The notes under the pieces were generated by a model that was not told the origin of the DNA, ran no database searches, and worked only from the letters and a program-made list of their open reading frames with translations. This document shows, piece after piece, positions 1,278 to 21,806 of a DNA stretch of 64,000 nt. The first letter of the stretch is position 1, and every line of letters begins with the position of its first letter. Source of the DNA: Escherichia coli (GTDB lineage Bacteria > Pseudomonadota > Gammaproteobacteria > Enterobacterales > Enterobacteriaceae); NCBI RefSeq assembly GCF_013122565.1, contig NZ_CP053258.1; one strand, written 5' to 3'. The position numbers were made by a program, and so were the translations under genes.

Positions 1278-2561
1278 CTCCGCCACACTCTCGCGCAGCG
1301 GTTTCACAGGAAAAACTTTTACCTGCTTAATCATATTGTCCTGTACGTCGAGAATATCGATATCGTACTCGCCAATACGCACGCGGGTGCCAGCGACAGG
1401 GATCTCTTCCAGAGCTTCAAGAATGACGCCATTAACCGTGCGGGCATCGTCTTCAGGTAGATGCCAGTTAAAGGCTTTGTTGATTTCCCGCACGTTGGCG
1501 GTGCCATCGATAATCACCGAACCGTCGTTTTGCGGCGTGACCTCTTCGGCAAGTGTTGGCGACATCGACGTAGTAAAATCGCCGACAATCTCTTCCAGAA
1601 TATCTTCAACCGTCACCAGCCCCTGAATGTCTCCATACTCGTTGACGACCAGACCGACTTTCTTTTTGTTGCGCTGAAACTTCACCAACTGCGTGCTGAG
1701 CGGCGTACCTTCGGGCACAAAATAGATCTCGTCCGCGGCGCGCAGCATGGTTTCTTTGGTGAACTCTTTTTTCTCCGACATCAACCGCCAGGCTTCACGT
1801 ACTCGCAGCATACTGATGGCGTCGTCCAGCGAATCACGGTAGAGCACGATGCGCCCGTGAGGTGAGTGGGAGAGTTGGCGCAGAATCGATTTCCAGTCAT
1901 CGTTGATATCAATACCGATAATTTCACTGCGCGGAACCATGATGTCATCAACGGTCATTTTTTCCAGATCGAGCACCGACAGCAGCATATCCTGATTGCG
2001 ACGGGAAATTTGTGAGCGCGATTCGTGCACGATAGTGCGCAACTCTTCTTTGCTCAAAGAGCCGCTAACCACGATATCGGTTTTGATACCCATCATGCGC
2101 ATCAGCATACGGGTGATAGCATTCAGCAACCAGACCAGCGGCATCATCAAAATTTGCAGCGGAGCCAGCAGAAAACTACTCGGATAAGCGACTTTTTCCG
2201 GGTACAGCGCGGCAATGGTTTTCGGCAATACCTCAGCAAAAACCAGTACGACAAAAGTCAGCACACCAGTCGCAATTGCCACGCCCGCATCGCCGTACAA
2301 ACGCATCCCAACAATAGTGCCGAGCGCGGAGGCAAGAATATTGACCAGGTTATTGCCGATTAACACCAGGCTTATCAGGCGGTCTGGCTTACGCAGCAAT
2401 TTTTCGACGCGTTTGGCCGAGCGATTACCCTGTTTCGCCATATGTCGCAGACGATAGCGGTTGAGGGTCATCATTCCGGTTTCGGACCCGGAAAAATAGG
2501 CTGAAATGACCACCATGATGATCAGAATAATGATCAACGTAGTAGTAGAAATGTGTTCCAG
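1275..2561 (-). CDS. yfjD: CNNM/CorC-family inner-membrane Mg/Co efflux protein with CBS domains (YfjD/CorB)
   Basis: ORF track 1275..2537 (420 aa; track start is TTG). Frame remains open upstream; a CTG at 2561 preceded by AGGAG would give 428 aa, the length I recall for K-12 YfjD. Start codon uncertain (2516 ATG, 2537 TTG or 2561 CTG). Confidence 0.8.
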   Translation of the reverse strand: MEHISTTTLIIILIIMVVISAYFSGSETGMMTLNRYRLRHMAKQGNRSAKRVEKLLRKPDRLISLVLIGNNLVNILASALGTIVGMRLYGDAGVAIATGVLTFVVLVFAEVLPKTIAALYPEKVAYPSSFLLAPLQILMMPLVWLLNAITRMLMRMMGIKTDIVVSGSLSKEELRTIVHESRSQISRRNQDMLLSVLDLEKMTVDDIMVPRSEIIGIDINDDWKSILRQLSHSPHGRIVLYRDSLDDAISMLRVREAWRLMSEKKEFTKETMLRAADEIYFVPEGTPLSTQLVKFQRNKKKVGLVVNEYGDIQGLVTVEDILEEIVGDFTTSMSPTLAEEVTPQNDGSVIIDGTANVREINKAFNWHLPEDDARTVNGVILEALEEIPVAGTRVRIGEYDIDILDVQDNMIKQVKVFPVKPLRESVAE

Positions 2562-2581
2562 GGGAAACTCCTTTTCTGGGT

Positions 2582-3373
2582 TTAGCTGATTAACTGCTGG
2601 ACAATTCGGCTGCCGAAGTAGGCCAGTGTCAGAATTACCGCGCCCGCAACGTTAAACCAGACGACGCGGCGTCCACGCCATCCTTCATGGTAATGTCCCC
2701 ACAGCAGCACAATATAGACAAACCACGCCACGATAGAGAGCACAGCCTTGTCGATATTTTCCATGCTAAATAGGTTGTGCATGTAGAACAGGCCAGTGCA
2801 AAGCGTGAGCGTTAGCAGCACCACGCCAATCTGCGTGATGTGGAACATTTTACGCTCGATACTCATCAATGGCGGCATTTCCTGGTTAAATGCCAGCTTC
2901 TTGTTCTTCAGTTGGTAATCAATCCACGCCAGTTGCAGCGCGTACAGGGCGGCGATAATTAGCGTGGCATAGGAAAAGAGCGATAAGCCAATGTGCACCA
3001 GCATCCCAGGCGTTGCTTCCAGATGGGTGATGTATTCATTGGGCATGAAGGTCGCCAGCGCCAGGTTGATAAGCGCAAAGGCATAGACAATGGGTAGCAG
3101 CAACCAGCCACGATTGCGAGAAGCCACAATGGTCATTACCGTACAGATCATCAAACTGACCAATGAACCAACGTTCAGCAGGCTGAGGTTTTGTCCGCTA
3201 TCACCGTCGGGCAGGATGCGGGCTTCCAGAGCGATTGCGTGGCAGACCAGCGCAATGACCGCAGAAATAATAGCCATGCGTCGCCAGCCGCCGTTTTTTT
3301 GCAGCAGACCGGGAACAATCAGCGCAAGACTGACGGAGTAGGCGACAAGCGCGAGCAGAGCAAAAACGGGCAT
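2582..3373 (-). CDS. ypjD: inner membrane protein YpjD (cytochrome c assembly CcsA-like family)
   Basis: ORF track 2582..3448; internal ATG at 3373 gives MPVFALLALVAYSV... and 263 aa, matching YpjD as I recall it. Multi-pass hydrophobic protein. Confidence 0.82.
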   Translation of the reverse strand: MPVFALLALVAYSVSLALIVPGLLQKNGGWRRMAIISAVIALVCHAIALEARILPDGDSGQNLSLLNVGSLVSLMICTVMTIVASRNRGWLLLPIVYAFALINLALATFMPNEYITHLEATPGMLVHIGLSLFSYATLIIAALYALQLAWIDYQLKNKKLAFNQEMPPLMSIERKMFHITQIGVVLLTLTLCTGLFYMHNLFSMENIDKAVLSIVAWFVYIVLLWGHYHEGWRGRRVVWFNVAGAVILTLAYFGSRIVQQLIS

Positions 3374-3539
3374 AGTAATGTCGACAGTTTGAGCAATAAG
3401 AAAGAGAAGCAGTATAGCGTCAGGTGAACGCTGCTCCAACCGTTGCATAACAACAAAGACGCCTTCATGTTATACTGCGGCAAAATACTGATGATGTGTC
3501 GCGATTGCGGCCAACCGTTTCCACCCCAGGCGAGAGACA

Positions 3540-4901: not shown

Positions 4902-4914
4902 TCGGCCTGGCTTG

Positions 4915-5006
4915 TTTGCCATTTTGGCACCGGGGTGTGCTCGTCATCCTCACGTACTGCGTGTACGCTCCGGTGACTGCGCGCACTCCGGCACCAAACT
5001 GGCTGC
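4915..5006. repeat. GC-rich dispersed intergenic repeat (boxC-like); second copy at 61622..61714
   Basis: About 90 bp sharing long identical blocks with 61622..61714 (TTTGCCA, GTGCTCG, ATCCTCACGTAC, CGTGTACGCTC, CCAAACTG, CTGCA); by-eye alignment roughly 70-75% identical. Confidence 0.45.
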
Positions 5007-5071
5007 ACCGCCGACGGCCTTTTACAGCAGAGTTAGCAACTGTTGATTGCAATTTCCGCAAAAATGAGTAA

Positions 5072-5398
<327 letters not shown>

Positions 5399-6801: not shown

Positions 6802-7152
<351 letters not shown>

Positions 7153-7182
7153 GATTTCGCTTAAGCGACATCCTGTTAAGAA

Positions 7183-7211
7183 GGGCTGGCCAATTGGCTG
7201 GCCCTTTTTTT
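7183..7211 (+). terminator. rho-independent terminator of the rpsP operon
   Basis: 9-bp stem (GGGCTGGCC / GGCTGGCCC with two G-U pairs), AATT loop, followed by TTTTTTT. Confidence 0.55.
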
Positions 7212-7228
7212 ATCTGTTTGCTCGTGTT

Positions 7229-7711
7229 TTAAGGGGTAGTAATCACCACTGCGACGCGGCGGTTCTCGGCGCGGCCCTGGGCGGTCTTGTTACTGGCTAT
7301 GGGATATTTTTTTCCTAAACCCTGTGTGGTGAGATTGCTGCGCGGAATTTGTCCACCCTTAGCCCATGCATCGGCCACGACATTCGCCCGTTTCAATGAT
7401 AAGCCTTCGTTGTAACTGTCTTCACCATAGTTATCGGTGTGTCCATCCATACGGGCATGTGTTAGCCCTGTCGAGGCCAATTTGGCTGCCATGGTTTGGA
7501 TCTGTTGCTGGCTTTCCGGGAGCAATTTGTAGTCATTTTTGGCGAACAGAATGGCATCTGATAAGCCCAGCGACCAGTCGCCGGCGGATTCAGTAAATCC
7601 ATAAGATTGCATAGCGGCGACTTGCTCAGGAGTAAACTTTCCCTGAGGGGACTGGCAGCCAGTCAGTATTAGTGAGGTGAAAATCAGGGGTGCTACCAGG
7701 TGCTTTATCAT
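7229..7711 (-). CDS. yfiB: OmpA-family outer-membrane lipoprotein YfiB (activator of DgcN)
   Basis: 160-aa ORF with lipoprotein signal (LILTGC) and OmpA-like C-terminal peptidoglycan-binding region (NTDNYGEDSYNEGLSLKRA, AENRRV). Confidence 0.9.
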   Translation of the reverse strand: MIKHLVAPLIFTSLILTGCQSPQGKFTPEQVAAMQSYGFTESAGDWSLGLSDAILFAKNDYKLLPESQQQIQTMAAKLASTGLTHARMDGHTDNYGEDSYNEGLSLKRANVVADAWAKGGQIPRSNLTTQGLGKKYPIASNKTAQGRAENRRVAVVITTP

Positions 7712-7726
7712 ATCGATATATCCTTG

Positions 7727-8953
7727 TTATCTCACCAGCTTTTCGGCACGCTGGTGTTTGGCCTGATACATATTGTGATCGGCAAGCTCTTGTAATTTTT
7801 CCGCAGAGGCGTGCTCAATGGTCATCGCGTAACCAATGCTTAATGTCATGGTGGTCTGATAGCCATTATGAAGATCAAACGGGAGATTAAAGATTTGTGT
7901 CAGTGCTGAACATATCTGCTGCACTTCAGATTCCGACTGTACATCATAGAGCACCATAGCGAATTCATCGCCGCCTATGCGGTATGCTTTATGTCGCAGC
8001 CCGCCAAATTCAGCTAACCGTTTTGCGATTTCAATCAAGACTCGATCGCCCGTCGCATGACCCCAGGTATCATTGATATATTTGAAATTATCGCCATCAA
8101 GAAATAGTAACGCCGACGTTTTTCGGGCATCGGAACTGTTCATCAACGTGTTGATACCGCTACGAAACGCTGCGCGGTTAGCCAGCCCGGTTAATGGGTC
8201 ATGTAGTGCGGTACGTAGAAGCTGCGCATTTTTGGCCTGTAAACGAAGCTGCCACTCTTCCATTTCATCCAGCAGACTGTTGAAGTCGAGAGCGAATCGG
8301 TGAAACTCAGCGATACGTTCTTCCGAAACTCGTCGGGAAAAATTGCGGTTGGAACGCACATCATGTACGACATCGGTGATATTTTTCAGCGCTTCCACCA
8401 GGCCATTGTGCAAATGGCGGGTGAGGGTAATTGCGATGCCTGATGCCAGCAGAATACAACCGGTCAGTACGGCGAGCGAAAACCAGATAAAATGGCTGAT
8501 TGAACTGTCGCGAGCGGTTAAGCGTACTTCGCCAATGGTTTCACCATTGTGACGAATCGGCTGAATAATGGGGGCAGGGAAGAGCCAGTGGCTTATGAAA
8601 TTGCTGAAAGTATCGCCTGGATCCTTACGGGTGTAATGCCAGGATGCCAGAATATTTTGCTGCTTATCACGTACTTCTGCAGTTGAAAATTGCCCTTGCT
8701 GGCCCAGCGCTGCCAGTGTTTCAGTTGCTGCAGGGCCATCGGCAAAAACGACAGCTGCTTCCAGACTGTAAGTCATTGTTGCTGCTGTCAGTGCCAGGTT
8801 TTTTTGCGCGTACTGTTTCAGGGTCAGCACCGAGGTCACGGAAAGCAGCAACCAGATCAGCATCATAGTGATAAATATGCTGGTCATACTGATGTTGCGT
8901 AATGCTCTTTTAAACGTGGGGCGCTTATTAAGAGAATTATCGTTATCCATCAT
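7727..8953 (-). CDS. dgcN: membrane diguanylate cyclase DgcN (YfiN), GGDEF domain
   Basis: 408-aa ORF with N-terminal transmembrane/periplasmic region, HAMP-like segment and RIGGDEF motif. Confidence 0.92.
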
Positions 8954-9461
8954 TTTTCTTCCGTGCGAGCATTAAGACATCCGGGTTGACCTTTACACCG
9001 CTACGCGATAAGGCATCCAGGTTTACGGCAAATCTGACGTCATTATTGTGGATGATCAGACAAAAGGCGCTACCAATAATGCACTCGGTATTTTGTTCGG
9101 CAATTAATAATAACGCCTTTGACGGATATTGTTCGGTTAATTCCATCTGGAATGTCGGTGACTCGTTGCCAAAATAAAAACCATTGCAGCCTGAAATCAT
9201 CGCCTCTTGTTGAGTGTGAATGATGACAGGCAGATAAGGCAAAGATGTCGCGGCATTCTCTTGTAGGGCGGTACTAAAACGTGAAGATGAAAAGATACAT
9301 AACTTTGGTGGCCCTGATAGCGCAGGCCAGCGGGTGTAACTGACAATACCGGAAACCATCATACGCACGTTTTTCGCAACGTCAGAAGGCTCCTGAGCGA
9401 GTATTGGTGCTCCCGTCAGCAGGAGAATCAGAAGTAAGAACAGTCGGTGAGAAAAACGCAT
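8943..9461 (-). CDS. yfiR: periplasmic repressor of DgcN, YfiR
   Basis: 172-aa ORF with signal peptide ([23 protein letters not shown]); overlaps dgcN start by 11 nt. Confidence 0.9.
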
Positions 9462-9610
9462 TCAGGGATCCCCACCATCTTCGCTCGAAATGCATCGATA
9501 TTTTTTCAGAATGCTCATTAAAATATCATTTTTTCATGCGATCGTCATCAATGTGAGAAATAAAACACAATGAGTAAAATCTTATGTTTAATTTATTTGT
9601 GGGGTTTTAA

Positions 9611-9976
9611 TTAATTTAATCGTATTGTGCTGGCATTTTCATCAGTCCCTTTTTGCCAAACTTCATGCAGTTGGCTGGCATTTTCAACATTGTTACAGCT
9701 GGCAGGAAAGCTTTTACCGGAAAGTCCCCGGGCATAAGTAAAATCGGTCTGGCAAGTTTTCTTTTGTCCTTCGGCATATCCTTTAAGGTATAGACCGCGA
9801 TCCGCCTGTGAATCGCTAAATGCATCGTCATCTTTTATGGCGCTGCCCGATATCGCATCTTCCATACCGACATCATACCAGTCGGTGCTGGTCAAGGTTG
9901 GCGCGTGAGTATAAGGATCAATCTGACATCCGCTAACCAGTAAAGCCAACAAGGGGGCGATAAACTTTTTCATCAT
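9611..9976 (-). CDS. yfiL: lipoprotein YfiL (DUF2799)
   Basis: ORF track 9611..10015; internal ATG at 9976 gives MMKKFIAPLLALLVSGCQ... with a lipobox; about 121 aa. Confidence 0.8.
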   Translation of the reverse strand: MMKKFIAPLLALLVSGCQIDPYTHAPTLTSTDWYDVGMEDAISGSAIKDDDAFSDSQADRGLYLKGYAEGQKKTCQTDFTYARGLSGKSFPASCNNVENASQLHEVWQKGTDENASTIRLN

Positions 9977-10021
9977 TTCTTTCTCCTTTTTCAAAGCATA
10001 GCGGATTGTTTTCAAAGGGAG

Positions 10022-10091
10022 TGTAAATTTATCTATACAGAGGTAAGGGTTGAAAGCGCGACTAAATTGCCTGTGTAAATAAAAATGTACG
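10022..10091. promoter_or_regulatory. TyrR boxes in the aroF-tyrA promoter region
   Basis: TGTAAA-N6-TATACA at 10022-10039 and TGTAAA-N6-TGTACG at 10074-10091 match TyrR box consensus TGTAAA-N6-TTTACA; about 95 bp upstream of aroF. Confidence 0.5.
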
Positions 10092-10185
10092 AAATATGGA
10101 TTGAAAACTTTACTTTATGTGTTATCGTTACGTCATCCTCGCTGAGGATCAACTATCGCAAACGAGCATAAACAGGATCGCCATC

Positions 10186-11256
10186 ATGCAAAAAGACGCG
10201 CTGAATAACGTACATATTACCGACGAACAGGTTTTAATGACTCCGGAACAACTGAAGGCCGCTTTTCCATTGAGCCTGCAACAAGAAGCCCAGATTGCTG
10301 ACTCGCGTAAAAGCATTTCAGATATTATCGCCGGGCGCGATCCTCGTCTGCTGGTAGTATGTGGTCCTTGTTCCATTCATGATCCTGAAACTGCTCTGGA
10401 ATATGCTCGTCGATTTAAAGCCCTTGCCGCAGAGGTCAGCGATAGCCTCTATCTGGTAATGCGCGTCTATTTTGAAAAACCCCGTACCACTGTCGGCTGG
10501 AAAGGGTTAATTAACGATCCCCATATGGATGGCTCTTTTGATGTAGAAGCCGGGCTGCAGATCGCGCGTAAATTGCTGCTTGAGCTGGTGAATATGGGAC
10601 TGCCACTGGCGACGGAAGCGTTAGATCCGAATAGCCCGCAATACCTGGGCGATCTGTTTAGCTGGTCAGCAATTGGTGCTCGTACAACGGAATCGCAAAC
10701 TCACCGTGAAATGGCCTCCGGGCTTTCCATGCCGGTTGGTTTTAAAAACGGCACCGATGGCAGTCTGGCAACGGCAATTAACGCTATGCGCGCCGCCGCC
10801 CAGCCGCACCGTTTTGTTGGCATTAACCAGGCAGGGCAGGTTGCGTTGCTACAAACTCAGGGAAATCCGGACGGGCATGTGATCCTGCGTGGTGGTAAAG
10901 CGCCGAACTATAGCCCTGCGGATGTTGCGCAATGTGAAAAAGAGATGGAACAGGCGGGACTGCGCCCGTCTCTGATGGTAGATTGCAGCCACGGTAATTC
11001 CAATAAAGATTATCGCCGTCAGCCTGCGGTGGCAGAATCCGTGGTTGCTCAAATCAAAGATGGCAATCGCTCAATTATTGGTCTGATGATCGAAAGTAAT
11101 ATCCACGAGGGCAATCAGTCTTCCGAGCAACCGCGCAGTGAAATGAAATACGGTGTATCCGTAACCGATGCCTGCATTAGCTGGGAAATGACCGATGCCT
11201 TGCTGCGTGAAATTCACCAGGATCTGAACGGGCAGCTGACGGCTCGCGTGGCTTAA
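10186..11256 (+). CDS. aroF: DAHP synthase, Tyr-sensitive (AroF)
   Basis: ORF track 10117..11256; ATG at 10186 gives [23 protein letters not shown]..., 356 aa. Confidence 0.95.
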
Positions 11257-21721: not shown

Positions 21722-21806
21722 CCTTAAAGAAGCGTTCTTTGAAGTGCTCACACAGATTGTCTGATAGAAAGTGAAAAGCAAGGCGTCTTGCGAAGCAGAC
21801 TGATAC

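Follow-up and report, generated by a model that had tools for sequence, protein, structure and literature searches.

Sequence analysis of a YfiBNR-type yfiR-dgcN-yfiB locus with a minority dgcN allele in Escherichia coli

Organization of the locus and its flanks

The locus lies in a 64-kb stretch of Escherichia coli DNA (64,000 nucleotides, hereafter the window), and comprises yfiR, yfiN (dgcN) and yfiB, which follow one another in this order on one strand:

8943-9461, minus strand: yfiR, 519 nt and 172 aa, ATG start and TAA stop, predicted DUF4154/YfiR-HmsC-like periplasmic repressor of DgcN
7727-8953, minus strand: dgcN (yfiN), 1227 nt and 408 aa, ATG start and TAA stop, predicted inner-membrane diguanylate cyclase
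7229-7711, minus strand: yfiB, 483 nt and 160 aa, ATG start and TAA stop, predicted outer-membrane OmpA/Pal-like lipoprotein

An earlier note on this DNA had described three tightly packed minus-strand genes at 7229-9461, and the list of open reading frames gives exactly those outer limits. The yfiR and dgcN genes overlap by 11 nt, the yfiR stop codon being located inside ATGATGGATAA, which opens dgcN, and the 15-nt gap between dgcN and yfiB holds an AAGGA Shine-Dalgarno-like element; another one, GGTGGGG, is found 8 nt before the yfiR ATG. This layout is that of the K-12 strain. The same note had called the three frames full length and free of frameshifts, which agrees with the comparison: each frame is as long as its K-12 orthologue (519, 1227 and 483 nt) and contains neither gaps nor internal stops. 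Divergence from K-12 forms a patchwork, in which yfiR is identical (0 of 519 nt, no substitutions) and the two other genes are about 1% diverged, with 13 differences over the 1227 nt of dgcN (substitutions N273S, L326I and H365Y) and 5 over the 483 nt of yfiB (V10I, in the signal peptide, and M118K). From the intact sequence and the near-identity to K-12 we infer that the module is functional, as the earlier note had proposed.

At a larger scale, the window is collinear with positions ~2,687,300-2,751,300 of E. coli K-12 MG1655, in reversed orientation, and is 98.1-98.9% identical to it in two blocks that are broken only inside the rrnG spacer. Over positions 1-25000 of the window, identity to complete RefSeq E. 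coli genomes is nowhere higher than 99.0%. All the K-12 protein genes that fall wholly inside the window (59/59) are present, ungapped and without internal stops, and the operon is bordered as in K-12, by rplS, trmD, rimM and rpsP beyond yfiB and by yfiL, aroF and tyrA beyond yfiR. When 5,426 complete genomes of E. coli were searched with a 2.7-kb query covering the locus, 5,425 gave a match, and in 5,370 the match covered 80% of the query or more. The yfiR-dgcN-yfiB operon is thus core-genome material in E. coli.

Three features of the flanks may bear on the expression of the operon:

9611-9976, minus strand: yfiL, DUF2799 predicted lipoprotein with a VSGC lipobox
9462-9610, minus strand: yfiL-yfiR intergenic region, 149 nt, AT-rich, presumed promoter region
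7178-7209: GC-rich hairpin in the space where rplS and yfiB converge

Read on the plus strand, the hairpin has a stem of 14 pairs and then a run of T, and is clearly a predicted intrinsic terminator for rplS. The minus-strand RNA (-18.2 kcal/mol, z = -2.07) contains two C-A mismatches, its CUUCUU tail is short, and it is a weaker candidate terminator for yfiB. No Rfam family was found in 7000-10200, either at gathering thresholds in a scan of the whole window or at E<=1. A scan for the sigma-70 consensus returned no site of at least 9/12 on the minus strand of the yfiL-yfiR gap; overall it gave 6 sites for 5.3 expected from shuffled sequence, which is no excess.

These observations leave room for a four-gene unit, in which the upstream yfiL gene would be co-transcribed with yfiR-dgcN-yfiB and would act with them in sensing the envelope. 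The gene lies just 149 nt upstream and shares the strand of the operon, its product is a predicted lipoprotein as judged from the VSGC lipobox, and the minus strand of the gap displays neither a terminator-like hairpin nor a consensus promoter. A promoter missed by a simple consensus scan is, however, weak evidence. Furthermore, yfiL is annotated in K-12 and in RefSeq as a separate gene of unknown function, it is not mentioned in the YfiBNR articles consulted, and the Pseudomonas aeruginosa system works with three components. We therefore consider a fourth member very unlikely.

That the scan revealed no recognisable strong promoter upstream of yfiR could also mean that the genes are intact but the module effectively silent, owing to poor expression or to full repression by YfiR. 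Indeed, the phenotypes published for E. coli mostly need a yfiR deletion, DsbA loss, DTT or expression from a plasmid. The region upstream of yfiR is nevertheless a single base away from that of K-12, where native YfiN is reported to delay the exit from lag phase (PMC10127611), and the operon is kept in essentially all E. coli. A silent module is thus unlikely, and an uninterrupted three-gene operon of the K-12 type remains the reading that we carry forward.

Predicted domains and conserved residues of the three proteins

Pfam and NCBIfam searches recovered all the domains predicted by the earlier note, that is OmpA in YfiB, GGDEF together with CHASE8 in DgcN, and DUF4154/YfiR in YfiR. The GGDEF and OmpA domains, whose absence the note had named as grounds for rejecting its reading, were both found, and the matches go far beyond chance since the Pfam E-values range from 2e-18 to 2e-42.

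YfiR matches Pfam PF13689 (DUF4154, YfiR/HmsC-like) with an E-value of 4.9e-31 and the NCBIfam equivalog "regulatory sequestration protein YfiR" with 168 bits for a cut-off of 85, and it matches the crystal structures of P. aeruginosa YfiR at 1e-16. Its N-terminus has the look of a typical signal sequence:

9396-9461, minus strand: predicted YfiR signal peptide, residues 1-22, followed by QEP; cleavage placed by eye between ILA and Q

A single hydrophobic segment is present, at residues 3-25, with none beyond. Four cysteines, Cys55, Cys92, Cys127 and Cys134, align one-to-one with C71, C110, C145 and C152 of P. aeruginosa YfiR, whose disulfides have been implicated in redox control (PMC4887326; PMC4992967). 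YfiR is therefore predicted to be a DUF4154 protein that is exported and has kept the cysteines which form the disulfides. Among the four residues of P. aeruginosa YfiR proposed to contact YfiN, three differ in the window protein (E163/A145, I169/L151 and Q187/K169), and because of this the YfiR-YfiN interface of E. coli may differ in detail. The divergence at these three positions applies equally to K-12.

YfiB was recognised by the Pfam OmpA profile (E = 2.4e-18) and by two NCBIfam models, PRK09967 (348 bits, cut-off 155) and OMP_LP_YfiB (232 bits, cut-off 128), and it matches the P. aeruginosa YfiB structure 4zhv at 4.6e-32. A regular-expression search located its lipidation signal:

7655-7666, minus strand: YfiB lipobox L-T-G-C, residues 16-19; Cys19 is the predicted lipidated residue, with Gln20 at position +2

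Cys19 aligns with Cys26 of the P. aeruginosa protein. Residues F39 and W46 correspond to F48 and W55, which function in activation, and N59, D93, G96 and R108 to the peptidoglycan-binding residues N68, D102, G105 and R117 (roles from PMC4887326). What YfiB does has been worked out for the most part in P. aeruginosa rather than in E. coli.

DgcN is assigned by the NCBIfam DgcN/YfiN equivalog with 500.9 bits, for a cut-off of 325, and Pfam delineates two domains:

8516-8821, minus strand: CHASE8 periplasmic sensor domain, DgcN residues 45-146, PF17152, E = 1.2e-33
7745-8209, minus strand: GGDEF catalytic domain, DgcN residues 249-403, PF00990, E = 2.3e-42

Hydrophobic segments identified by Kyte-Doolittle analysis at about residues 20-46 and 150-179 bracket CHASE8, which points to the topology expected of a periplasmic sensor. 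A HAMP domain has been described between TM2 and the GGDEF domain of YfiN (PMC4992967). Pfam gave no HAMP match over the whole of DgcN at E<=0.01, and residues 151-245 returned only a spurious Med29 match at E<=10; the stretch ALDFNSLL in the linker resembles by eye the AS2 motif of HAMP. The silence of Pfam on HAMP holds equally for the K-12 protein.

The PF00990 match spans almost the whole profile (positions 1-159 of 161), and the GGDEF domain aligns at 8e-29 with the solved GGDEF domain of TpbB/YfiN (7a7e). In this alignment all the catalytic elements of DgcN are conserved: DGDNFK (286), INDTWGH (293), GGDEF (327-331) and YQAKHQR (396). The predicted active site is intact, as are the putative metal- and GTP-binding residues. 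Synthesis of c-di-GMP has been shown for K-12 YfiN (PMC4992967, PMC10127611), a protein three residues apart from the DgcN of the window.

No RxxD motif occurs anywhere in DgcN, and GLRH stands at the place where it would be expected, five residues before GGDEF. P. aeruginosa TpbB/YfiN differs here: it has RESD, an RxxD motif, upstream of GGDEF, whereas DgcN has a two-residue deletion and reads GLRHKA. Given GLRH at the site and no RxxD, DgcN falls in the I-site-less class, as published for K-12 YfiN (PMC10127611; PMC11327459), and without an RxxD inhibitory site its c-di-GMP synthesis would not be limited by product feedback. As to a secondary I-site, the N280 named in PMC10127611 has no counterpart asparagine at position 280 of the 408-aa numbering, where DgcN has a serine. 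The earlier note was silent on the missing I-site, the most distinctive published property of the DgcN cyclase.

The DgcN allele

The signature motif of the cyclase carries one of the three substitutions relative to K-12:

7961-7981, minus strand: R-I-G-G-D-E-F motif, DgcN residues 325-331, with Ile326 encoded by ATA at 7976-7978

The earlier note had reported an intact RIGGDEF motif, which is indeed present at residues 325-331 but is not the reference motif, since K-12 has RLGGDEF. The codon for residue 326 is CTG (Leu) in K-12 and ATA (Ile) here, that is two changes in one codon. Among the 5,426 complete genomes of E. coli, 96 contain the exact 31-mer around Ile326, that of EAEC 042 being one of them, and RIGGDEF is therefore a minority natural allele. 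The 61-mer around the same residue is exact in 15 complete E. coli genomes, and was not found among the GTDB species-representative genomes. Residue 326 adjoins the catalytic residues and is not itself catalytic. In solved cyclases this position is a leucine (TpbB and 5m3c, RLGGDEF) or a tyrosine (Thermotoga maritima, RYGGDEF), so that the change to isoleucine is conservative.

The exact DgcN protein is already known as WP_072146306.1, of strains LHM10-1 and XJ5.2, and occurs on 231 public contigs, while the exact YfiR and YfiB proteins are each found on at least 1,000; the YfiB protein is identical to that of LHM10-1. Four contigs that encode the identical DgcN reach only 98.8-99.4% identity to the window. 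All three exact proteins are therefore already in public collections.

It is conceivable that the module is intact and that this allele, through the combined effect of L326I, N273S and H365Y, differs from K-12 DgcN in catalytic rate or regulation. The two nucleotide changes that L326I takes within one codon could be read in this direction, and so could the minority status of the allele, as seen in the counts of the 31-mer and of the contigs. Moreover, by alignment reasoning N273S would be placed in the helix upstream of the metal-binding aspartate, approximately where the secondary I-sites of other cyclases map. Several observations stand against such a difference. Leucine to isoleucine is a conservative replacement, and the occurrence of leucine or tyrosine at position 326 in solved, active cyclases implies that varied hydrophobic residues are tolerated; neither I-site is restored, since no arginine has been gained in DgcN relative to K-12; and the allele is kept in diverse strains, EAEC 042 among them, which is consistent with a neutral polymorphism. 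We thus hold a DgcN that departs from K-12 in rate or regulation to be highly improbable, and would give scarcely any credence to a measurable effect of Ile326, N273S and H365Y on catalytic output or on responsiveness to YfiR. If such an effect did exist, it would, combined with the uneven divergence of the locus, suggest that a cyclase without an I-site and potentially able to arrest growth has been tuned in a lineage-specific way. Our preferred reading is essentially the K-12 version of the operon, correctly annotated, uninterrupted and set apart from the reference by nothing more than a conservative minority allele.

Proposed mechanism and comparison with known systems

YfiBNR is a three-component c-di-GMP signalling system, and the well-studied operon of E. 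coli turns on c-di-GMP synthesis under stress of the cell envelope. On the strength of the sequence comparisons, we regard it as almost certain that the locus is an intact chromosomal yfiR-dgcN(yfiN)-yfiB operon and a member of this system, essentially in its K-12 version and with a mechanism likely to be of the K-12 type. The operon is already known, with a published mechanism and with P. aeruginosa homologues of solved crystal structure, and there is nothing new here. In the strain of the window, all the steps of the mechanism are proposed by orthology with, and near-identity to, the K-12 system, and for each of them the sequence shows what the step would require.

In this mechanism, YfiR would be an exported periplasmic protein kept stable by disulfide bonds, and would bind the periplasmic, PAS-like CHASE8 domain of DgcN, thereby holding the cyclase off. 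Binding of YfiR to the periplasmic domain of YfiN is indeed what causes repression, and DTT or the loss of DsbA inactivates YfiR in E. coli (PMC4992967). Release could follow two routes. Under reducing conditions, or upon DsbA loss, YfiR would misfold; under envelope stress, the peptidoglycan-binding YfiB of the outer membrane would sequester it. The second route is documented in P. aeruginosa, where YfiB, once activated, extends across the peptidoglycan to sequester YfiR (PMC4887326). The freed DgcN would then produce c-di-GMP with no limit from product feedback. Derepressed YfiN leads, through c-di-GMP, to less motility and more cellulose-dependent biofilm (PMC4992967, PMC10127611). In E. 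coli, envelope stress acts as a second signal upon which YfiN moves to the Z ring at mid-cell, where by binding to FtsZ and ZipA it comes to block the synthesis of septal peptidoglycan (PMC4992967). The earlier note had presented the module as a known envelope-stress-responsive c-di-GMP system; the identity of the system stands, but the signal shown to release YfiR in E. coli is reductive stress (PMC4992967). In any work on biofilm, motility, antibiotic tolerance or division arrest, the strain would be expected to have a functional DgcN that is free of feedback and controlled by YfiR.

Some related loci differ from that of the window in the integrity or number of their components. In Shigella flexneri 2457T, dgcN (S2841) occupies the same locus, is >97.9% identical to that of K-12 and has the same GLRH/GGDEF arrangement, but it contains a premature stop at codon 120, whereas dgcN is uninterrupted in the window (PMC11327459), and this excludes 2457T as the source of the window. 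Likewise, strain XJ5.2 has an IS1A inside yfiR, a gene that is uninterrupted here. Yersinia pestis HmsCDE and Salmonella yfiRN (PMC5550408) associate a homologous repressor of the YfiR/HmsC type with a CHASE8-GGDEF cyclase. Salmonella is without yfiB (PMC4992967), which the window has.

The P. aeruginosa YfiBNR (TpbB) system shares with the window the three-component architecture, the domain families, the four YfiR cysteines, and in YfiB the lipobox cysteine together with F48, W55, N68, D102, G105 and R117, although identity in the aligned regions is only ~32% for YfiR and ~40% for YfiB. The closest characterised counterpart is the K-12 operon (b2603-b2605), to which YfiR is 100% identical, DgcN identical at 405 of 408 residues and YfiB at 158 of 160. 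The two differ by five substitutions in total, with RLGGDEF in K-12 and RIGGDEF here, and by one upstream intergenic base, and they have in common gene order, strands, lengths, the 11-nt overlap, the neighbouring genes and a GLRH site without RxxD.

Divergence within the yfi module

The module is composed of three intact minus-strand genes, encoding the periplasmic repressor YfiR (8943-9461), the 408-aa GGDEF diguanylate cyclase DgcN, or YfiN (7727-8953), and the OmpA-family lipoprotein YfiB (7229-7711). Pairwise comparison with E. coli K-12 (MG1655) revealed 0 differences in yfiR (519/519 nt identical), whereas the adjoining 7229-8953 region is diverged by about 1% in both genes, with 13 of the 1227 nt differing in dgcN and 5/483 in yfiB. 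An identical yfiR beside such neighbours suggests a local patchwork, which probably results from recombination, or else an exceptional degree of conservation in yfiR.

Co-oriented with yfiR and located upstream of it at a spacing of 149 nt is a further gene:

9611-9976, minus strand: yfiL, a DUF2799 lipoprotein of unknown function with a VSGC lipobox

Its product carries an A111T substitution relative to K-12, and neither a terminator nor a promoter was detected in the yfiL-yfiR gap by a hairpin and consensus promoter scan.

Relatedness of the strain and spacer lengths

No complete RefSeq E. coli genome matched positions 1-25000 at >99.0% identity, and the contigs encoding an identical DgcN are only ~99.3% identical to the window. 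The source strain, an E. coli-type genome, has no close complete relative in the collections searched.

Two spacers differ in length between strains. The ffh-rpsP spacer (4902-5149) measures 248 nt here, as in K-12, vs 136 nt in E. coli LHM10-1, and when four related contigs are aligned with the window, each alignment is interrupted precisely at this spacer. The difference amounts to an indel of ~112 nt, which may be a repetitive extragenic element. Collinearity with K-12 is interrupted solely at the 16S-tRNA-Glu spacer of the rrnG-type operon (21722-21806), which spans 85 nt as compared with 171 nt in K-12 rrnG; this looks like rRNA spacer length heterogeneity.

Residues 326 and 280 of DgcN

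Two base changes within one codon (7976-7978) replace the CTG/Leu of K-12 with Ile, encoded by the rare codon ATA, at DgcN residue 326, which adjoins the GGDEF motif. The exact 31-mer around this codon occurs in 96 of the 5,426 complete E. coli genomes, EAEC 042 among them, and the exact 61-mer in 15; the latter was not found in GTDB species representatives.

Residue 'N280' is given as the position mutated to Arg for rebuilding the secondary I-site (PMC10127611). In the 408-aa numbering, residue 280 (~8114-8116) is Ser rather than Asn, both in the window and in K-12, and the published numbering could not be brought into line with this one.

The yfi locus of E. coli XJ5.2

Strain XJ5.2 (NZ_CP074354.1) ranked first in the complete-genome search. 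Its DgcN and YfiB proteins are the same as those of the window, and its yfiR is split into two pseudogene fragments by an inserted IS1A (extracted locus 2244-3539). This disrupted yfiR constitutes a natural repressor knock-out, in which DgcN is expected to be derepressed.
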